Source: Patescibacteria group bacterium
GTDB lineage: Bacteria > Patescibacteriota > JACPGU01
DNA length: 64,000 bases
Assembly: GCA_041675145.1 (NCBI GenBank)
Contig: JBAYUK010000001.1
Location: forward strand, 312,283-376,282
Direction of reading: 5' to 3'
Positions 11,731-61,847 of the stretch are shown piece after piece. The position numbers were made by a program, and so were the translations under genes. Each line of letters starts with the position of its first letter. Within the stretch, counting starts at the first letter, position 1. Under the pieces are notes generated by a model, which ran no database searches, had not been told where the DNA came from, and was given only the letters and a program-made list of their open reading frames with translations.

Positions 11731-11949
11731 CTATAATAACCTGAGTAAGTCTTCTGCAGTGAGACGCGCGTATCGCAAGATACTTTTAAGTGTACCAACC
11801 CTCATATCTCTACTATGGTACGGAACAGTGACGACCATATCCTCCTTTGTGAAAACTCTGTGACTGCCTCTTTGACGAACAAATAAAAAACCGGCTCTTT
11901 CAAGAGCTCGGATTAGTTCTTTTGGCTTTAGTACTGGAATCTGTGACAT
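11731..11949 (-). CDS. hicA: HicA-family mRNA interferase toxin
   Basis: 72 aa MSQIPVLKPKELIRALERAGFLFVRQRGSHRVF is a classic HicA. Confidence 0.8.
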   Translation of the reverse strand: MSQIPVLKPKELIRALERAGFLFVRQRGSHRVFTKEDMVVTVPYHSRDMRVGTLKSILRYARLTAEDLLRLL

Positions 11950-11955
11950 TTAGTA

Positions 11956-12243
11956 CTATACTTCAACACTGACCGGAGCAACTATTACACGTGAAGTATA
12001 AGGGATGTTATTTTTATTTTCTTTCGAAACTTCAATATACAGTTCCGCTGCCTCTCGGATATTATCAGATGCCTCTTCAAACGTGTCTCCTTCAGAGACA
12101 CAACCAGGCAACGCAGGTACCGTAACCGTATACCCGCCTTCAGGCGCCTCTTCAAAGACAGCAGCGTATTGATGCACAGTAGTCATAAGGAGTTTCTTGC
12201 TCATGAGTATATTATGCCAATAAAAGTGCGAACGGTCAAACAC
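11956..12243 (-). CDS. hicB: HicB-family antitoxin
   Basis: YTVTVPALPGCVSEGDTFEEASDNIREAAELYIE is the HicB/UPF0150 fold. The true start is probably the internal Met at about 12186-12204. It overlaps the upstream acyltransferase stop. Confidence 0.65.
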   Translation of the reverse strand: MFDRSHFYWHNILMSKKLLMTTVHQYAAVFEEAPEGGYTVTVPALPGCVSEGDTFEEASDNIREAAELYIEVSKENKNNIPYTSRVIVAPVSVEV

Positions 12244-13414
12244 TCACCTTGCGTTTCAAGAACCACTTTTCTATATACCGATACGATAGATACGCCATAC
12301 CAAACGAAAGCGCAAAAGAGAGAATAATAACAACAATAAAGTGCGGAATAGACTCGTAGGTGAGTTCAACTCCTAGCTTGAAGAGAGTAGCAATCACTAG
12401 TGACATAGCAATCATATGGTAGGCGTAAAACCCGTAGGAGATAGTGCCAAGGAATGAAAACAACTTCAGTTCCTTGGCCTTAAAAAATGATTGTATCGAT
12501 TCATTCTGCTCAAAAATAATAAGCGCGAAGAGTATGGCAAGCACTAATGGCACAAATACAGCCGAGAGGTTGCGTACCAGTACATTCTCAACTGAGACAT
12601 ACGTTAGGTAGTGGCGCCCAATAATAACCGTGGCGGTAAGAAGATAGAGCAGCGCAACCCCCGGTTTGGGAATACGATGTAATAATGCAATAACTCCTTT
12701 TTTATAGTACAGCGCCCAGGCCAGCAAGCACCCAATTGCAAGATCCGACATTACTGAGAAGGTGGAAACTCCCAACACCTCTGGACTACCAGCGTAGTGC
12801 AACCGGTACAGGCAGGACAGAGTAATCACGAGACCCAGTGAGTATGGTATATACGTTCTCGGCAAGAAAGATACCACCCATGGCCACACTAAGTAGAACT
12901 GCTCTTCAACCGAGATAGACCAGAGGACATCGAGTGTTCTGCCTGAAGTACCGTGAAAGGCCAAGGTAAAGTTACCTAGGAACACGAGAAAACTTGGGAG
13001 CGATGGTAGGTGAGGTAAAACCGGATACGGTAAACCAAAACTACCCAGTAAAAAATGGAGGATAGGAGGAAGAATAAAGAACCCTGTTATAAGGGTAATA
13101 AAATACACTGGCCAGATACGCAAGATCCGTCGCTTATAAAACTTCCAGAGGTTAATCTTCCCAAAATGATCCTGTTCGGTAAATAACAAGTAGCTAATAA
13201 GAAAACCTGAGAGCACAAAAAAGAACGAGACACCAATATCTCCGTTAATTAACACGTACTTTTTAATCTTCAAGTATAACGCGTTATTTTCCTCGTATCC
13301 TAAGAACAAGGCCGCGTGAGAGACAAAAACCACAAGGAACGCAAAAAAACGCAACCCGTCGAGGTTGGCGAAAAATACTTTTGGATGTTTTTGTGAAGAA
13401 AGCACAGCTGACAT
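12236..13414 (-). CDS. acyltransferase 3 family integral membrane O-acyltransferase
   Basis: Track ORF 12236..13519 trimmed to MSAVLSS... The N-terminus FFANLDGLRFFAFLVVFVSHA is the Acyl_transf_3 signature, followed by about 10 TM segments. Confidence 0.75.
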   Translation of the reverse strand: MSAVLSSQKHPKVFFANLDGLRFFAFLVVFVSHAALFLGYEENNALYLKIKKYVLINGDIGVSFFFVLSGFLISYLLFTEQDHFGKINLWKFYKRRILRIWPVYFITLITGFFILPPILHFLLGSFGLPYPVLPHLPSLPSFLVFLGNFTLAFHGTSGRTLDVLWSISVEEQFYLVWPWVVSFLPRTYIPYSLGLVITLSCLYRLHYAGSPEVLGVSTFSVMSDLAIGCLLAWALYYKKGVIALLHRIPKPGVALLYLLTATVIIGRHYLTYVSVENVLVRNLSAVFVPLVLAILFALIIFEQNESIQSFFKAKELKLFSFLGTISYGFYAYHMIAMSLVIATLFKLGVELTYESIPHFIVVIILSFALSFGMAYLSYRYIEKWFLKRKVSV

Positions 13415-13604
13415 GTACCTATCATACCCAGAATGTACACGTAATGACAATAAACATATATACAGACTTATATTTATATATCCATTTGTAGCATCACTAC
13501 TCACAACATATATTGACACAACTATTCGCAGTATGTATAATATAGCTATTCAGCTCTACCTGCTCTTTTCACGTCCAAACATCAAAACACCCTAGGAGGC
13601 TTCA

Positions 13605-14498
13605 ATGCGAGAGTTCTTTAAACGTCACACCACTATCTTGAAAGTCATTTCGGTAGTAGGAACGATCCTGGGAGTAAGCTGTGTAGTTATCCTTGAGATA
13701 GCCCGCAAAGATCACCCCCTAACCATTGCGCTGCACAGCATGCAGAAGAGAGAAAGAGACATAACCATCCACAATATCTCTTCTGCATATAACGTGGTTT
13801 TTCTCAAAGACAACACTCTACTCAAACAACCACTCTCAGTCGGTGGCAAATCAGGCTTTATCGTCTGTGACCTCAGAATCAACCACATGCCATACCTGCA
13901 GTCCTGGATAACAACGAGCAAAAGTCCTGGATATGAAGATGTCACTCCTGATTTTGAGCTCACCATCAAGCTCAACCGTTGGTGCTGGGATCTTGAAAGG
14001 ACCATAACCGCAAACGAAAGGATCTTTAAGACCAAGGACTCCACCACTACAGGCTCTACCAGCATTACACATGCAGGTAGCGTCAGTGGATCAGTTGAAG
14101 TTAAGGAGCACAACGGATCGTTAGAGCCAAAACCATGCATCGAGCCAAGTATCAACCAAAAGTTTGACCGGGCTGAAAGCTATATAGATAAAGAACACTG
14201 GAGGAAAAAGCTTAAAGCTCGGTTCAAAGACCAAATAGATGAGGACGACGAGTTCACTTTCCCTTTTCACGAAACTCCAGCCACTACTGGGCTAAAGTAC
14301 ACCCTCGAAGGGTATGCTAATTGCGAATCAGAAAACAGCGAAGACGGCTATGGTAGTGGATACCTATTCAAAAACAAGGAAGACGACCTCGTAATTGACT
14401 TGGCTGAAAAAGAACGACTATTCGTTAGAGGGTGGTGCGCTAAAAAGCTAAAAGAAATTACCCAAGACCCCACTCTCTTCCCACAGACCTGTAAATAG
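13605..14498 (+). CDS. hypothetical membrane-anchored protein (297 aa)
   Basis: N-terminal TM (ILKVISVVGTILGVSCVVILEI) and an acidic C-terminal region. No family recognised. Confidence 0.45.
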   Translation: MREFFKRHTTILKVISVVGTILGVSCVVILEIARKDHPLTIALHSMQKRERDITIHNISSAYNVVFLKDNTLLKQPLSVGGKSGFIVCDLRINHMPYLQSWITTSKSPGYEDVTPDFELTIKLNRWCWDLERTITANERIFKTKDSTTTGSTSITHAGSVSGSVEVKEHNGSLEPKPCIEPSINQKFDRAESYIDKEHWRKKLKARFKDQIDEDDEFTFPFHETPATTGLKYTLEGYANCESENSEDGYGSGYLFKNKEDDLVIDLAEKERLFVRGWCAKKLKEITQDPTLFPQTCK

Positions 14499-14646
14499 AG
14501 CAGGCGTAACCAAGCAGTTAGAATAGCGATCCGTAAGGGTCGCTATTTTTGACTTTACTTAGCGATTATTATATAATAATCGCAGTTCTTAATTGAACAT
14601 TCACATTCGGCTAAATACACACACCAACGCCACTAAGGAGGCATAC

Positions 14647-15999
14647 ATGAGTACAGCAGTTGTCGCTGCAAATCAAAGAAACACCTGGGGGAGAGTCGAA
14701 GAGACCCTCCAGACCAACAACGCCCAGTCGGTCGAAGCTTTGAAACATAAGCTCGTAAAGCTTGCGGCAGAAAAAAGCGCCCTCGAAAAAAAGTTTGACG
14801 AAAAAAACCAGCAAACAGGGAGTATGTTCTTCGGATTTATTGTGAGGCCAGGACTCCTCCCAAGCTCTGTGATGTCGTTGACGCGCGAACAAAACGCGGA
14901 AATCAAACAGATCCAAGAAGAACTGACTGGACTGGATCTGCAGATCACAGAACTGAAAAAAGACATTGAGAAGCTGGAGTTCAACCCAGACCACTGGCGC
15001 GAGAAGCTTCTGGCCTATGGCATCCTCCCTTGGGCGATCGTGAAACAGAACTTCTATGAGCACTTGTGCAAAAAACACAAGATGGTGACTTTTCGCCACC
15101 TCGCCATGGACGGCACAACACACTGCCTGCCCGGACACGAAAGACCTGGGAGCAAGGAAGAAGGTCAAGCTGACAATATGTTCAATTTGACAATCTTTAT
15201 CCTCTTATCCGCAGTCGCGACAGCTGGAGTCTTCCTGCTGAGTTCCTCGCCAAACCCAATTGCAAGCTCACTCCTGTGGGTGGCGCTAACTGCGTTTGCC
15301 ACGTGGGCAGTGTGCGATTCCTCAAAACCGGGACCACGGGAAGTGCTCGTAACATCTTCCATTCTCCTCGTGATAAATGCGTTCGTCTCCACTGCACCCG
15401 CATTGATTTTGAGCAGTGGATTCCTGGCTGCGATAGGCACGACTCTTGGCGGCTTTACCGCCCTCGCACTAGTCTGGTTCTTTGGCAGCATCTTCATAGT
15501 TATCGGCCTCGCCGATAACAGTCAAACGCTACAAACACTCACGAACCATATGGCCCGAAAACTTGCTTTTTTGCACACGCGAGATAAAAAAAGCCAAGCA
15601 GCCTTCTTCTTTCCAAATGGGCGAGACGACCAATACGGGTACGAAATTAAAGTTCAGTTCCCAGAGGTCCCAGACCAATTCGTTGAAACTCTCAACCAGG
15701 CTATACAGACACAGTTTCCTCGGTTCGTGACTGCGGTTCCTGAAGCAATCACGATCGACAAAGACGATAAGGTCCGAGTTATCAACCGTTTGTTTGGAGA
15801 CTTGCTGGACGCCAAGAAAAAAGAAACTCTGGCGAGGAGAGAAGCAGCCAAACGACATATGGTCGACCTCATTGCCGATCCCATCCATGGACTCGAACTC
15901 CCTGATGGCTACATCGCCATTCTGTTCCAGCATGGAGTGTTTGCCTCTGAGCAGGAGCTGATGGAAGAAGCAAAAAACTACGACAACTCAGAAGACTGA
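14647..15999 (+). CDS. hypothetical membrane protein with an N-terminal coiled coil and four TM segments
   Basis: AAGGAGG RBS 6 nt before the ATG at 14647 (MSTAVVAANQ...). Coiled-coil stretches, then TM segments. Confidence 0.5.
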   Translation: MSTAVVAANQRNTWGRVEETLQTNNAQSVEALKHKLVKLAAEKSALEKKFDEKNQQTGSMFFGFIVRPGLLPSSVMSLTREQNAEIKQIQEELTGLDLQITELKKDIEKLEFNPDHWREKLLAYGILPWAIVKQNFYEHLCKKHKMVTFRHLAMDGTTHCLPGHERPGSKEEGQADNMFNLTIFILLSAVATAGVFLLSSSPNPIASSLLWVALTAFATWAVCDSSKPGPREVLVTSSILLVINAFVSTAPALILSSGFLAAIGTTLGGFTALALVWFFGSIFIVIGLADNSQTLQTLTNHMARKLAFLHTRDKKSQAAFFFPNGRDDQYGYEIKVQFPEVPDQFVETLNQAIQTQFPRFVTAVPEAITIDKDDKVRVINRLFGDLLDAKKKETLARREAAKRHMVDLIADPIHGLELPDGYIAILFQHGVFASEQELMEEAKNYDNSED

Positions 16000-17341: not shown

Positions 17342-17643
17342 TTGACACCTCCTTTAGGGGTAGTTGTTTTTGCCTGAAACTGCGTATTCTGATCTGAAAC
17401 ATGAATTAATTTGTCGATATAAAAGTGAGCGGAATCATCCCAGGTGTAGCGTCCAATACCAATCAAGGTAAAGGCAATGATACCCAACATCGCAATCACA
17501 AAACAGAGTGTTACTAAAATACTCATACCAGCTAAAGCCCGGTACTGACCAAAAAGCCACACTCGGTACATGGCATAGCCCATCACCGCCACATAGGCGA
17601 TAAGGAACAAAGCATAGATAAGTAGAAGGATGCTTCCAAACAT
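17338..17643 (-). CDS. small 3-TM membrane protein (YdbS-like partner), translationally coupled to the downstream gene
   Basis: 101 aa, hydrophobic. Its stop overlaps the start of the YdbT-like gene. Confidence 0.45.
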   Translation of the reverse strand: MFGSILLLIYALFLIAYVAVMGYAMYRVWLFGQYRALAGMSILVTLCFVIAMLGIIAFTLIGIGRYTWDDSAHFYIDKLIHVSDQNTQFQAKTTTPKGGVK

Positions 17644-17704
17644 GGCAATAAAAATAACTAAATTATGGCTTTATATTCCTAATTTTACATCTTTTTATCA
17701 ATAT

Positions 17705-17733
17705 TGACAAGAGTGGTCATTTTACCTATAATT
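17705..17733 (+). promoter_or_regulatory. perfect-consensus sigma70 promoter (TTGACA, 17-nt spacer, TATAAT)
   Basis: ttgacaagagtggtcattttacctataat. It is followed by a roughly 200-nt leader before the GTG at 17943. Confidence 0.6.
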
Positions 17734-17942
17734 ATCACTATCGCTCGTTGACAAAAAGCGCTTGAATGCTCCAACCCTGGACACATTCAGCCACCCATTT
17801 CTTTGACCCCCATTTCCCCAAGACTATAGAAAGGACGGTATAAGCGCATGAAACAAATTGCCGCATATGCGGACTCGAGCTGAGGATGCCTAACCTCAGT
17901 TCGTGAACAAATCCCGTTAATCCAGAAAAAAGAGGCACATAC

Positions 17943-18560
17943 GTGACACACTCAACAGATACGAAAACTGCACAAGCCAAATTAGACATCCTCCGGGCTG
18001 TTCTATCTCAACCTGCAAGTTTTCAGCCAAAGAGCGATCAGTATGCCGAGGCCGTCGGCTATCTCTTGCACTCACCTGCAGAAATCCTGACAGCCTTAAA
18101 CGGCAAACTTCCTCAGGTCGCAATTGGCTTACGCCCTGTCCTTGGTATCCATTGGCACAAAGGATACCACGACATCAAGCCCGCTCAGCGCAAGGCTCTC
18201 ACCTACACAGAACTGTGGTGCCCTTGCCCCTACAACTGGGAAAAGGACGATAAGAAAGAAGATCGCCCCCCTGTCAGCCGCGGCTGGATCGTGACAGTCA
18301 GTGAAGATGTCACCGTCGAGAACCGAGACCTCATCATCAACCAAGGCGGTAGAACTCATCGCTTCCCTGATGTTATTCAAAAAGGCTACGAACTCGGCCT
18401 TTTCCTGACACCAGGATACCAAGGCAATCTCCTGACCAGCGGCGACCCAGTTCCTCAACGGTTCTTTGCCCCACTCAACGACAAGGAACTTCGCTTCGAA
18501 ATCAGCTCTATGAAAAAAATCATGGAGCAACAGTTAGCTGAAGCGAAGGGGAAACGTTGA
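17943..18560 (+). CDS. hypothetical protein (205 aa, GTG start), GC-rich
   Basis: AAGAGG RBS 8 nt upstream. About 55% GC against a 43% background. No recognisable domain. Confidence 0.5.
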   Translation: MTHSTDTKTAQAKLDILRAVLSQPASFQPKSDQYAEAVGYLLHSPAEILTALNGKLPQVAIGLRPVLGIHWHKGYHDIKPAQRKALTYTELWCPCPYNWEKDDKKEDRPPVSRGWIVTVSEDVTVENRDLIINQGGRTHRFPDVIQKGYELGLFLTPGYQGNLLTSGDPVPQRFFAPLNDKELRFEISSMKKIMEQQLAEAKGKR

Positions 18561-19000
18561 TGCCGGGCATCCAGCGTCAATCTAAATCCCCAGACCCTGA
18601 AGTACGAGCGGCACTTGCCGCTTACCTTCGAGGCGATGGTCCTTACCCCGTCCTGACAGAGGCTCCTGCTCAAGCAGAAAGTCCGCCGAAAAAGAAACCA
18701 AACGGCCGGGAATGGCATCCGGAAATCATTCAGCTTCCCAGCGGAGCACTCCATGATTGCCCCGTACGAGCAATTCTGGAACCTGCTGTGTTGCCGATCC
18801 TGGAAGAAGCCGAGATTCCCATCAACACCCATGTGGACATGAAGGAACGATGGGTTCATGGGGTGCGCGTCGCATACGACGAAGTCATCCTGTACATCCG
18901 AGCACCTGGTCCGTCATGGAGAAAGACAAAACAACTCCTTAAAGAAGCGGGCTTTGACCCCAACTCCTGCCTCAAACGGCGTGTTTTGTCACTTCACTAA
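18560..19000 (+). CDS. hypothetical protein (~146 aa), GC-rich, translationally coupled (TGATG) to the upstream gene
   Basis: MPGIQRQSKSPDPEVRAALAAYLRGDGPYPVL... with no recognisable domain. Confidence 0.5.
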   Translation: MPGIQRQSKSPDPEVRAALAAYLRGDGPYPVLTEAPAQAESPPKKKPNGREWHPEIIQLPSGALHDCPVRAILEPAVLPILEEAEIPINTHVDMKERWVHGVRVAYDEVILYIRAPGPSWRKTKQLLKEAGFDPNSCLKRRVLSLH

Positions 19001-19043
19001 ACAACTACCCTTTGGAGGAAAGGGTTACGAACAACAAAAAAAC

Positions 19044-19072
19044 AACGGCGTCCGAAAGGACGCCGTTTTTCT
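19044..19072. terminator. bidirectional rho-independent terminator
   Basis: AACGGCGTCC, GAAA loop, GGACGCCGTT, then TTTTCT. Confidence 0.75.
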
Positions 19073-19096: not shown

Positions 19097-20122
19097 TTAT
19101 ACCTGCTTGCGACCAAAGTATTCGTAGGCTTTGGCTGTTGCCTTGCGCCCCCTGGGTGTTCTCTCTAGAAACCCGATCTGAAGCAAGTATGGCTCATACA
19201 TATCTTCAATGGTTTCTACATCCTCTGCTGTAGCTGCCGCTAGTGTTTCCAGTCCCACTGGTCCTCCTTTGAATTTATCTATCAAGGTAAGAAGTATTTT
19301 TTTGTCTCCCTTATCAAGTCCGAGTGAATCAATGTCCAGCATAGTAAGAGCCTCATCTACTACAGTAGCAGTTATCACTCCATCATGCCTTACATCAGCA
19401 AAGTCTCGTACGCGACGCAAAAGACGGTTTGCAATTCGGGGCGTAAAACGGGCTCTTGTTGCAAGCGATGCAGTAGCATCATCTAAAATTTTTGAGTTGA
19501 GAAGTTGCGCCGAACGATTCACGATCTGAGAAATTTCATCTTTTGTATAGAAGTCGAGATTGAAGATAGTACCGAACCGGTCTCGCAACGGCGAGCTCAT
19601 CATACCTACCTTTGTAGTAGCACCAATAATGGTAAAGGGTTGCAGTTCAATACGCATAGATCTGGCACCAGGTCCTTTTCCTATCATAATATCTATTGCA
19701 CGATCTTCCATGGCAGGATACAAGATCTCCTCCACTACTTTATTCAGACGATGAATCTCGTCAATAAAAAGCACATCGCCTGCTTCAAGACTGGTTAACA
19801 TTGAAGCCAGGTCTCCTGCTCGCTGTAAGGCAGGACCGGAAGTCACCTTAGTCTGACGACCAAGTTCGTTTCCAATAACAAAAGCCAGAGTTGTCTTTCC
19901 GATACCAGGCGGGCCATAGAGCAAGGCATGCTCAAGAGCTTCTCCTCTTTTTTTAGCCGCATCAATAAAGATCTGGAGGGACTCTTTAATCTTCCCCTGA
20001 CCTATATACTCAGAAAGTAACTGAGGGCGAAGGCTCGTATCTACCTTGTCGTCCATAGTTCTTACTGGTGAGACAAAGCGTTCCACATCTCCATCAAATT
20101 GTTCGTCTTGTTCTTCTGTCAT
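19097..20122 (-). CDS. ruvB: Holliday junction branch-migration ATPase RuvB
   Basis: [22 protein letters not shown]...LFIDEIHRL...IGATTKVG...[11 protein letters not shown] is the RuvB AAA+ signature. Confidence 0.9.
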
Positions 20123-20387: not shown

Positions 20388-22415
20388 ATGAACTTCGACC
20401 TCCAAAACATTGCCTTGATTGTGATGGGCATTATCGGACTTCTGGCTCTTATTGCCATTGTCCGTGAAATGCTGGTCTATATCGGGCCAACAGAGGTTGG
20501 CTTGCTGACCAAAAACTTCGGACGCAAGAATCGCGGCGAAAACCCTATCGCCTTCAACGGCGAAGCCGGATACCAAGCAAAGCTCCTGATGCCCGGACTG
20601 CGCTTTGTGCTGTGGCCCATTTTCAGAGCCAAAAGATGTCCATGGGTGCAGATTCCAGCAGACGAGAAGGGCGTGGTCATCTCCCAGATCGGAGAACCAC
20701 TCCCCAACGGAACCCGCTCGGGCATCTATAAGCCGGCGTTTGGTCAGTTTACTGACCTGGAAGCATTCATTAATGGTGGTGGACAAAAAGGCGTGCAACG
20801 CCCTGTTCTCCCACCCGGCACTGTGCTCCCCCTTCACCCCATTGCCTTCCTAGTTGTCACCGGAGAAAAGGTCTTCGGAATTCCCACTGACCCAAACTTG
20901 GAGTCCAGACTAGAGAAAACAAGCGTGGGTTGCGAGGCTTTTGGTCTTCGTAGCAGTCAGCTCAAGGTTGACACCATTTCCTCAGTCAGAAGACAGGAAG
21001 ACAATGCTCCGGTGGACTGTATCGGGGTTGTCACCGCTCTTGACGGCGAGCCTCTTGGAACCGGCGACCTTTTCAGCCGCCTGGGAGGATTTTCCGACAT
21101 CGAAGCCTTACTCCATAAAGGAACTGGGGAACCAGACAAAATCGACAACAAAGAACTGGTTCATGCCATGATGGGCAACTCCAACGCGAAACACAACTCG
21201 TACCAAGACTTCCAGGCGTTTCTCGACAGCAAAGGTAAACGCGGACTGCAATACGATGTGCTCCTGCCAGGAGCGTATCTACTCAACCCAATCCTAGTGA
21301 GCCTCGAGGTCATCCCAATGACTGTGGTCAAGCAAGGAGAGGTGGCGGTGGTTACGGCATACGCCGGACTGCCACCCAAAGATGAGTCTGGTGAGAAGTT
21401 TAAGCACGGGTGGCTAGTTCGCCCTGGCTGCCGCGGCATTTGGATTGAGCCACTGCGCACCGGAAAATATGCGCTCAACTCCCACTGCTACTCAGTGGAG
21501 AAGGTTCCCACCGCCATCATCACCCTGAACTGGTCGGATCGCGTCAGCACAGCCCACAACTTCGACGAGAAACTGAGTCCGATTAATGTGAAGAGCAAAG
21601 AAGGCTTTGTTTTCACATTAGACCTTCAAGTGCAGATCCACATCCCAGACGCTGAGGCTCCTGGCGTCATCTCGCGCGTGGGCAGTGTCGCCAACTTGGT
21701 CGGTGAAGTACTCCAACCAGTTGTCGGAAACTACTTTCGCAACAAACTACAAGAAAAGTCGGCAGTTAAGTTCATCGAGGAACGAACCACGATCCAGGAG
21801 GAAGCGAAAAAATATGTCGAAGGTGAACTCTCCAAGTATGGCGTTCAACTGGTAGGCATCTTCGTTCAAGATGTCACCTTCCCGGAAGACTTAGTTTCAG
21901 TTCTGAAAAACCGAGAAATCGCCAACCAGCAAGTGAAAACTGAAGAGCAAAAGAAGCTAGCTGAGGATGCTCGCGCAAAGACTTTGGCAGCCAAGGGAAC
22001 AGCGGAAGCTCAAGAATCGTTATCCAGCTCCCTAGTCGGCATCCAGGTAGCCGAGAATCGCGCTAGCGCGCGCAAAAAACAAGGTGAAGGTGAAGCTGCC
22101 TATATCGAGTCCGTAGGCAAGGCCGAAGGATCAAGGGCTGAAGCACTTGGCAAGGGTCTGAAAGCCCAGTCCGAAATTCTTGGGCCTGAAAGCACGCTCA
22201 GGCTCAATGTTATCCAGGCAATGTCGGAAAAGGGCATCTCTCCCACTCCTCACATCCTGGTTATCGGAGGAAACAGCGGCACCGGCAACGGAACCCTGGA
22301 CGCCGTTCTGGCTTCCATGCTGGGCACCATACAGACCACGCCAACCACATCAGTTGCCACCAGCACTTCACAAAAAAGCCCGGTTTCAACCGAGCCGCCT
22401 CAAGCCGAGGCATAG
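20388..22415 (+). CDS. SPFH/band-7 domain protein, flotillin-like (YqiK/FloT family), 675 aa
   Basis: N-terminal TM, SPFH-like core and a C-terminal Ala/Glu/Lys-rich coiled coil (KTEEQKKLAEDARAKTLAAKGTAEAQE...). GC-rich (about 55-60%). Confidence 0.7.
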   Translation: MNFDLQNIALIVMGIIGLLALIAIVREMLVYIGPTEVGLLTKNFGRKNRGENPIAFNGEAGYQAKLLMPGLRFVLWPIFRAKRCPWVQIPADEKGVVISQIGEPLPNGTRSGIYKPAFGQFTDLEAFINGGGQKGVQRPVLPPGTVLPLHPIAFLVVTGEKVFGIPTDPNLESRLEKTSVGCEAFGLRSSQLKVDTISSVRRQEDNAPVDCIGVVTALDGEPLGTGDLFSRLGGFSDIEALLHKGTGEPDKIDNKELVHAMMGNSNAKHNSYQDFQAFLDSKGKRGLQYDVLLPGAYLLNPILVSLEVIPMTVVKQGEVAVVTAYAGLPPKDESGEKFKHGWLVRPGCRGIWIEPLRTGKYALNSHCYSVEKVPTAIITLNWSDRVSTAHNFDEKLSPINVKSKEGFVFTLDLQVQIHIPDAEAPGVISRVGSVANLVGEVLQPVVGNYFRNKLQEKSAVKFIEERTTIQEEAKKYVEGELSKYGVQLVGIFVQDVTFPEDLVSVLKNREIANQQVKTEEQKKLAEDARAKTLAAKGTAEAQESLSSSLVGIQVAENRASARKKQGEGEAAYIESVGKAEGSRAEALGKGLKAQSEILGPESTLRLNVIQAMSEKGISPTPHILVIGGNSGTGNGTLDAVLASMLGTIQTTPTTSVATSTSQKSPVSTEPPQAEA

Positions 22416-60689: not shown

Positions 60690-60866
60690 GCTTGCCTAAC
60701 CCTCATCTCTTGGTGAGGTATGGTGAATAAATCCGGATATAGGGGAGAGAACTCTCCGTTTAAGGTGTTACCTATATCCGGTCTATGCTCGAAAGGGCAT
60801 AGGATAGTCGCAAGACTGTCGCATCTTAGCGGGGAGCTTTTTGCGTTTTAATACTAAATTATCACT
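60690..60866 (+). ncRNA. structured 5' leader (candidate cis-regulatory RNA) upstream of the thermonuclease gene
   Basis: Nested hairpins: CCTCA-N8-TGAGG, then CCGGATATAGG[GGAGAG-aa-CTCTCC]...CCTATATCCGG, then CTATGCTC-GAAA-GGGCATAG. No known riboswitch class recognised. Confidence 0.35.
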
Positions 60867-61847
60867 ATGCTTTTTGGCCTTTTTACACTCCTGTTTCTCG
60901 CTTCGTTCGTTCTGTTGATCGTTGGGCTTATCAACCCAAAGCCAGTCAGTAAGCTTTTTCGCAAAGAGTTCAGTCGTAAAACAATCGCTGGTTACTTCAG
61001 TGCGGCGGTGCTGGTTTTCTTTATCCTGAGCGGCGCTTCTGCTGGCCCTGTGCCAAAGAAAGCTGATCCACAGCAAGCAACTCAAGAAACAACTGAGCGG
61101 CCCGCCGCACAAGACGCCACTAGTCCTGACAACAATGAGGGCGTTGAGCCTGCTACGACCGCTGTGACAGCCAAAGAACAGCCGGACGCAAGTCAGCCTC
61201 TCTACGATGTCACTTCAGTCACTGACGGTGACACAATCAAAGTAAATATTGCCGGCAAGGTTGAATCAATTCGTCTGATTGGTCTTGATACCCCGGAGGT
61301 GGTCGATCCACGTAAACCAGTGCAATGCTTCGGCCAGGAAGCTTCAAAGCGTGCCAAGGACATCCTGACGGGCAAGAAGGTACGCCTGGAGGCTGACGCA
61401 GTGTCCGGTGAGCGAGACAAGTATAATCGCTTGCTCCGCTATGTGTGGCTTGAAGACGGCACATTGTTCAACAAACAGATGATTGCTGACGGTTACGCTT
61501 CTGAGTACACCTACCAGAGCCAGGTGTACAAGTATCAATCAGAGTTTAAAGAAGCCGAGAAACAGGCGCGCGATGGCCAGAAAGGGCTTTGGAATCCTAG
61601 TACGTGCAACGGCGACGCAACAAAGCCTGCTGTGACACCTGTGCCTGCGGTTACGCCTGCTCCTGCAGCTCAATCACCAACGCCAAAGCCTGCTCCTGCT
61701 CCAGCACCATCAGGATCAGTCGTTAAGAAGAGCAAGAGCAGTATCTGTCACGCTCCAGGCACGAAGTATTACGACCAAACGACCAACTTCACGCCATACA
61801 ATACTGTGGACGAGTGTCTGAACAGTGGCGGTAGGTTACCAAAATAG
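60867..61847 (+). CDS. membrane-anchored/secreted thermonuclease (staphylococcal nuclease, SNase fold) with a Pro/Ala-rich linker and a Cys-containing C-terminal domain
   Basis: DGDTIKV...IRLIGLDTPE...RYVWL...ADGYA are SNase motifs. About 58% GC. Confidence 0.8.
   Translation: MLFGLFTLLFLASFVLLIVGLINPKPVSKLFRKEFSRKTIAGYFSAAVLVFFILSGASAGPVPKKADPQQATQETTERPAAQDATSPDNNEGVEPATTAVTAKEQPDASQPLYDVTSVTDGDTIKVNIAGKVESIRLIGLDTPEVVDPRKPVQCFGQEASKRAKDILTGKKVRLEADAVSGERDKYNRLLRYVWLEDGTLFNKQMIADGYASEYTYQSQVYKYQSEFKEAEKQARDGQKGLWNPSTCNGDATKPAVTPVPAVTPAPAAQSPTPKPAPAPAPSGSVVKKSKSSICHAPGTKYYDQTTNFTPYNTVDECLNSGGRLPK

Follow-up and report, generated by a model that had tools for sequence, protein, structure and literature searches.

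In genomes of the Candidate Phyla Radiation (CPR, Patescibacteria), ORFan accessory genes lack detectable homologues and domains, are confined to one lineage and lie between conserved core genes. The locus described here, a cassette of two open reading frames (ORF1 and ORF2) between ruvB and orf101, shares all of these properties. It lies in a 64,000-nt section (the window, in whose numbering positions are given; positions 312,283 to 376,282 of the forward strand of contig JBAYUK010000001.1, GenBank assembly GCA_041675145.1) of the 428-kb contig of a patescibacterial metagenome-assembled genome. The cassette is of a very common kind, one among very many orphan accessory operons and genes of CPR genomes, and differs from these in that its transcription signals are unusually explicit and its insertion point can be narrowed down to the stretch that separates a terminator from a -35 hexamer. 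In the reading preferred here, to which a probability of roughly 60% is assigned, it is a real, bicistronic, lineage-specific orphan accessory operon. The modestly interesting addition is the site itself, a conserved slot with back-to-back promoters which hosts unrelated orphan genes in different lineages.

Two further described systems are close enough to be compared. In symmetric bidirectional promoters, a pseudo-symmetric element is read on both strands and transcription is divergent; these promoters have been linked to horizontally acquired DNA and to promoter evolution, and the class is marked by overlapping -10 elements and by starts which lie 7-29 bp apart (Warman et al., bioRxiv 10.1101/2020.01.31.928960; NAR 2026, PMC12825309). 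The cassette and orf101 likewise share a pseudo-symmetric promoter element which is read on both strands with divergent transcription, but here the overlap is at the -35 hexamers, by 5 bp, with the -10 elements 45 bp apart and the predicted starts about 64 bp apart. Membership in the class described by Warman et al. was therefore rejected, and the two promoters form a classic back-to-back divergent pair. The second system, the type II toxin-antitoxin operon, has in common with the cassette an arrangement in which two small adjacent genes lie in accessory DNA, run in the same direction and overlap at the stop codon of the first and the start codon of the second. In contrast to these operons, the cassette encodes no toxin, antitoxin or DNA-binding domain that the searches described below could find, both of its proteins are basic, its first gene is 205 codons long, and it has a consensus promoter and a long leader.

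Architecture of the transcription unit

With a promoter, a 204-nt leader, the two ORFs and an intrinsic terminator in succession, the cassette has all the parts of a transcription unit and spans about 1.33 kb (Table 1). The encoded proteins are labelled by NCBI as hypothetical proteins WC045_01885 (ORF1) and WC045_01890 (ORF2). A preliminary description of this DNA, made from the sequence alone, had named an exact consensus promoter, a leader of about 200 nt with hairpins, a translationally coupled gene pair and a clean terminator, and each of these elements was recovered by the present analysis.

The predicted promoter matches the sigma-70 consensus at all 12 positions, with a spacer within the usual 16-18 nt and a gene on the same strand downstream, and places the start of transcription at about position 17739. 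Exact TTGACA-17-TATAAT sequences occur three times in the window where 0.03 would be expected, which puts the cassette promoter beyond chance but also means that it is not unique to the cassette. All five matches with at least 11 of 12 positions are intergenic, and each is oriented towards a gene. The organism thus appears to use near-consensus sigma-70 promoters, and a perfect promoter would be a habit of this genome and no mark of the cassette. From the consensus promoter we infer that transcription of the cassette would be constitutive and strong.

The -35 hexamer of the cassette is the near-palindromic -35 element of orf101 read on the opposite strand (TTGTCAA / TTGACAA). The upstream element of orf101, TTGyCA-17-TAAAAT-tAGCTTA, is kept in all of the sister loci discussed below. 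Because of this overlap, an RNA polymerase heading one way may block access for one heading the other way, and expression of the cassette and of orf101-orf423 could, speculatively, be negatively coupled.

Table 1. Positions of the cassette elements, of genes in the neighbouring accessory island and of the genes found at the same junction in sister loci (the last two rows are numbered within the sister loci)
Feature	Position	Strand	Evidence and remarks
Divergent orf101-orf423 promoter	17682..17710	-	TTGTCA-17-TAAAAT, 10/12 in motif scan; -35 hexamer 17710-17705
Cassette sigma-70-type promoter	17704..17732	+	TTGACA 17704-17709, 17-nt spacer, TATAAT 17727-17732; 12/12 in motif scan
Cassette 5' leader	17739..17942	+	About 204 nt, predicted start to GTG at 17943; folding compared with shuffles
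Leader hairpin	17763-17790	+	Folding
Leader 4-bp hairpin CCGCATATGCGG	17861-17872	+	Sequence and folding
Leader hairpin CTGAGG-atgcctaa-CCTCAG	17880-17899	+	Extends to a 10-bp stem, 17876-17903
ORF1	17943..18560	+	GTG start, 205 aa; Shine-Dalgarno sequence AAGAGG 17930-17935, 7 nt upstream
ORF2	18560..19000	+	146 aa; ATG overlaps the ORF1 TGA (TGATG); Shine-Dalgarno sequence GAAGGGG 18545-18551
Bidirectional intrinsic terminator	19044..19072	both	10-bp stem 19044-19067, 7 G-C pairs, loop GAAA
ruvB	19097-20122	-	Convergent with the cassette, common terminator
hicA	11731-11949		Accessory island
hicB	11956-12204		Accessory island
acyltransferase_3 gene	12236-13519		Accessory island
Island orphan gene 1	13605-14498		Accessory island; perfect promoter 13513-13541 upstream
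Island orphan gene 2	14593-15999		Accessory island; 11/12 promoter 14549-14577 upstream
L083 slot gene	L083 1601-1990	-	129 aa; promoter TTGACA-18-TATAAT, 12/12
L006/L085 slot gene	L006 2114-2452 = L085 4637-4975	-	Promoter TTGACA-17-TAAAAT, 11/12

The leader folds more stably than shuffled sequences, both in its local hairpins (z = -3.7 and -3.3) and as a whole (z = -2.6), and both of the hairpins singled out in the preliminary description were located within it. The 60 nt around the start codon of ORF1 are without structure (z = +1.2), as are the final 40 nt of the leader with the ribosome-binding site, so that the start region appears open, as expected of a working initiation site. The window has a single copy of the CTGAGG...CCTCAG hairpin, and the leader also holds a mini-ORF of 11 codons (17849-17884, MKQIAAYADSS) whose end falls within the 10-bp stem. 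The leader does not have the make-up of a transcription attenuator, as the 10-bp hairpin is followed by GUGAACAAAUCCCG and not by a U-run. In the mechanism proposed here, the leader hairpins would be neither a terminator nor a mask of the ribosome-binding site, because the U-run is missing and the start region is open; they may instead influence the stability of the mRNA or act as a binding site. A scan against Rfam 15, by which a known cis-regulatory RNA could have been recognized, matched the leader to no family at E <= 10 in a credible way (the best score, on the wrong strand, was 18 bits where the threshold is 95), and neither the rest of the window nor 160 related loci contained similar DNA.

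At its other end, the unit is closed by a predicted Rho-independent terminator, in which sequence and folding give a G+C-rich hairpin with a U-run directly behind it. It begins 44 nt past the stop codon of ORF2, the run directly behind its stem is TTTTT on the + strand and TTGTTTTTTT on the - strand, and its folding is far more stable than that of shuffled sequences on either strand (z = -5.8 for + and -4.9 for -). With an A-run on one side of the hairpin and a T-run on the other, it would also end the convergent ruvB transcript.

Coding evidence for ORF1 and ORF2

The evidence that ORF1 and ORF2 are coding is good though not conclusive. When scored with a codon model built from 33 further genes of the window, both frames came out best of the six; their base composition by codon position correlates with that of the native genes (r = 0.71 for ORF1 and 0.78 for ORF2), and the order of GC content over the three codon positions, GC1 > GC3 > GC2, resembles that of native genes. 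Two open frames which tile the whole 1,055-nt region on one strand arose in just 10 of 3000 dinucleotide shuffles. As the ORF2 frame is open only from position 18542, the pair is no obvious frameshifted single gene. Antisense ORFs of 133-134 aa are shadow frames of the usual kind, with no Shine-Dalgarno sequence and a position downstream of the ruvB terminator.

Both predicted proteins are soluble and basic. The ORF1 protein has an isoelectric point (pI) of 8.8, and no signal peptide or membrane segment was seen in it, while the ORF2 protein (pI 8.6) contains 12% proline overall and is proline-rich in its N-terminal third. The two proteins would be made in a fixed proportion and would probably work together as a complex.

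Two small sequence symmetries lie inside ORF1. A hairpin with the arms GGTATCC / GGATACC is found at 18143-18169 (region 18140-18169), and a perfect 11-nt inverted copy, CCTTGGTATCC / GGATACCAAGG, has its second arm 263 nt away at 18414-18424.

Two proteins without known relatives

The preliminary description had seen no known domain by eye in either protein, and the same result was obtained with profile and sequence database searches. In a word-indexed search against 5.8 billion clusters, ORF1 and ORF2 each found only themselves. Searches of both proteins against Pfam (in which the antisense and alternative-frame ORFs were included), NCBIfam, PHROGs, PADLOC and the sequences of the PDB returned nothing; neither protein had a family match at E <= 1 in Pfam, NCBIfam or PADLOC-DB 2.0, and neither of them corresponds to a component of a known anti-phage defence system in PADLOC-DB 2.0. 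The phage and viral collections gave the same picture, with no match in IMG/VR and either none or only matches at E >= 0.3 by tblastn in INPHARED. Both proteins thus appear to be orphans without a known domain.

An exhaustive phmmer search with ORF1 against 1.84 billion representatives gave two non-self matches, P0003 with six BslA-like repeats and P0004 with two fn3 domains, both aligned to residues ~64-140 of ORF1 around LTYTELWCPCPYNWEKDDKK. These fn3 and Ig-like beta-sandwich repeat proteins are the sole non-self matches of that search, and they give no evidence of homology: single repeats score only 6-25 bits (E = 1-270 at the size of the library), and the reported E-values are an artefact because scores were summed over near-identical repeats. 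They were accordingly rejected as homologues. A fibronectin type III domain (PF00041) was rejected as well, with no Pfam match at E <= 10 and per-domain phmmer scores of 18-25 bits (E >= 1).

Structure prediction did not help to place the proteins. Single-sequence AlphaFold2 models reached a predicted local distance difference test score (pLDDT) of 47 for ORF1 and 44 for ORF2, and with these poor models Foldseek found nothing in the PDB below E = 0.5 or above a template modelling (TM) score of 0.34. The biochemical role of the two proteins is not readable from their sequences.

The ruvB|orf101 junction in sister genomes

Sister loci were sought in GTDB genomes and JGI metagenomes with RuvB as the anchor, and nine distinct genomes were obtained. 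The nearest of these have RuvB proteins 68-73% identical to that of the cassette-bearing genome, with none closer than 73%. The order ychF, ruvB, orf101, orf423 is kept in all of them, with the LTD-domain gene and relA coming next wherever the sister contig reaches far enough; both orf101 and orf423 encode membrane proteins, the first of them small and the second with a bPH domain. Between ruvB and orf101, the nine genomes also keep the ruvB terminator followed by the orf101 promoter.

The cassette is absent from the syntenic ruvB|orf101 junction in all nine distinct genomes. In five of the nine, the distance from the ruvB stop codon to the orf101 promoter is 89-96 nt, and in the others the gap measures 184-613 nt. 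In the window, the ~1.33 kb of the cassette fill exactly the space between the ruvB terminator and the orf101 promoter. The absence from the sister junctions supports a lineage-specific insertion, and the corresponding part of the preliminary description is thereby upheld.

At the same junction, other genes are found in two further lineages (Table 1), where a promoter placed back to back with that of orf101, as in the cassette, would drive the slot gene. The slot genes of L083 and L006 are homologous to each other with 36% identity, while the RuvB proteins of these loci are 75% identical; an in-frame TAG in the gene of L006, which is also that of L085, points to a pseudogene, to readthrough or to an assembly error. 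The L083 gene is itself an orphan in the search of 5.8 billion clusters, in which only the self-match was returned, and neither BLASTP nor profile comparison found similarity of the L083/L006 gene to ORF1 or ORF2. In the RuvB tree, the three gene-bearing lineages fall into three separate clades, each beside relatives with an empty slot. L083 and its close relatives L005 and L086, whose RuvB proteins are 86-89% identical to its own, differ at the junction by a clean indel of ~520 nt. This patchy occupancy next to empty-slot relatives indicates that the ruvB|orf101 junction is a variable slot at which DNA is gained and lost.

Base composition and origin of the cassette

Horizontal acquisition had also been proposed for the cassette, and its GC content had been put at about 55%. 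Measured values are lower, with 51.5% for ORF1, 54.4% for ORF2 and 52.7% for both combined, against 45.9% for the window. This places the cassette in the top 3.5% of 1-kb windows but within the range of the genes (39-58%); several other genes of the window equal or exceed it, and its GC content at third codon positions is inside the native range. In its dinucleotide signature the cassette is unremarkable, 33% of windows being just as deviant. A foreign composition was therefore rejected except for the moderately high GC content, so that of the earlier proposal the lineage-specific insertion stands, as the cassette is absent from the sisters, and recent foreign DNA does not.

The coding strand of the cassette is C-rich, as is that of every gene on the + strand, while nearly every gene on the - strand is G-rich, and the cumulative GC skew falls monotonically over the profiled stretch (10-28 kb). 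The C-richness of the cassette thus appears to reflect replication-strand skew. The window appears to lie within one replichore, with the cassette and the other accessory genes of the + strand on the lagging strand.

An insertion relative to the sister genomes is supported by these comparisons, while an origin that is recent or from a very different donor is not demonstrable from composition. De novo origin from the ancestral spacer of ~90 nt was considered implausible because 1.3 kb of new DNA are present. Signs of a mobile element were sought at the cassette, with the result that there are no significant flanking repeats, no recombinase nearby and no phage homologue.

A perfect 12-nt inverted repeat, GGGTAGTTGTTT / AAACAACTACCC, is found at 17358-17369 and 18999-19010, with one arm within the 3' end of orf101, the other directly past the stop codon of ORF2, and a small hairpin adjoining each arm. 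It is probably a chance occurrence, as ~0.1 such pairs are expected in 2.1 kb.

Alternative explanations and possible role

Several observations weigh against a real protein-coding operon and would also fit ORFs that are non-functional. On this explanation, the region would be inserted or relic DNA transcribed off the opposite arm of the orf101 promoter, with ORF1 and ORF2 at most proto-genes or parts of a non-coding RNA. The codon scores of the two frames are low (0.08 and 0.01 bits per codon, against 0.02-0.30 in real genes), and the C-rich, stop-poor strand makes long frames fairly easy to come by, since 3.7% of its dinucleotide shuffles contain an uninterrupted frame of 205 codons or more. 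No homologues were found in the searches described above. The low-confidence structure models, although usual for orphans, would fit non-proteins too, and the high proline content of ORF2 points in the same direction. However, only 0.3% of shuffles reproduce the tiling of the region by two frames, both starts have a correctly spaced Shine-Dalgarno sequence and meet in the TGATG overlap, composition over the three codon positions is like that of native genes, and the unit runs from an unstructured start region to a terminator placed shortly behind the last stop codon. Taken together, non-functional ORFs are considered unlikely. A limit on the operon reading is that all copies found are 100% identical, without polymorphism, the second cluster member being of equal length. 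A further point of doubt concerns the insertion and not the proteins: as the sisters are distant, the age of the event and its direction, gain in this lineage or repeated loss in the others, are not settled.

In another explanation, nothing was inserted and the cassette would be the ancestral slot gene known from L083 and L006, an old and fast-evolving resident that was expanded or split and has diverged past recognition. Identical position and orientation, the 5-bp overlap of the -35 hexamers and the shared terminator in three separate clades would fit such a common origin, and so would the fast evolution of the slot gene relative to RuvB. Neither BLASTP nor profile comparison links the two, though, and a single gene of 129 aa behind a leader of ~45 nt stands against two genes of 205 and 146 aa behind one of 204 nt, which makes this descent very unlikely. 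The preliminary description had suspected a toxin/immunity or small enzymatic pair. A further explanation would accordingly place the cassette in an undescribed family of two-protein conflict modules, be it toxin-antitoxin, toxin-immunity or another type, in which the co-translated partner would neutralise the harmful protein. Two short co-directional genes with a stop/start overlap, a place in a variable, lineage-specific slot, the hicAB pair within a neighbouring insertion and the orphan status which is shared by many conflict proteins are all compatible with it. By contrast, searches of PADLOC, Pfam, NCBIfam and PHROGs matched neither protein to a toxin, antitoxin, immunity, defence or enzyme family, and a DNA-binding domain of the antitoxin kind was not found either. 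The two proteins are both basic, where a typical toxin-antitoxin pair has one acidic and one basic member, and ORF1 is large for a type II partner. The control region is also unlike the short autoregulated promoter of toxin-antitoxin operons, with a perfect constitutive promoter, a 204-nt leader and no operator-like palindrome across the -10 element or the start. A conflict module is thus quite doubtful, and what is left of the earlier interpretation is a lineage-specific unit without known domains, not an identified toxin/immunity or enzyme pair and not recent foreign DNA.

For the accessory operon favoured here, the best guess is an accessory and dispensable role, with genes that came with inserted DNA of the mobile-element or phage type and do not serve a housekeeping function. 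A bolder version, which is rather improbable, would make the junction a landing pad or nursery in which the near-palindromic -35 element and the ruvB terminator express any insert at once. The cassette would then encode two new protein families with new folds that work as a pair, perhaps under a leader RNA of a new regulatory type, and might be a conflict or host-interaction module of an episymbiont. If the proteins are real and act together, two uncharacterised families would be added to a phylum rich in hypothetical genes. A promoter-terminator slot with unrelated orphans in different lineages, the more useful point, also offers a testable case of how reduced genomes gain new genes and express them immediately. 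As it stands, the cassette bears on no specific open question about function.

Other accessory features of the window

A larger accessory island (11731-15999) lies between the LTD-domain gene and orf423 and is absent in the sister genomes; its genes and the promoters upstream of its two orphan genes are listed in Table 1. On the other side of ruvB, a Band_7 (SPFH) gene (20388-22415, 675 aa, GC 53%) forms an insertion that separates ychF from ruvB and is oriented divergently to the latter. The ychF|ruvB junction ranges from ~100 nt to ~4.2 kb among the sister loci, and this varying spacing marks it as a second variable slot.

Another of the perfect TTGACA-17-TATAAT promoters is found at 2999-2971 on the - strand. 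It is followed by ~450 nt without an ORF of more than 62 aa (2503-2999), which end in a terminator-like hairpin, CTCCTCTTTCGGGAGG, with a T-run at ~2527-2503. No match to this stretch was found in Rfam at E <= 1. It may represent a non-coding RNA of ~450 nt that has not been described before, or else the gene at 1361-2317, whose GC content is 57.8%, may have its very long leader here. Towards the other end of the window, a LOOT RNA (RF03000) was identified at 60693-60820 on the + strand with 79.6 bits, well over the gathering score, and a gene at 60867-61847 follows shortly downstream.

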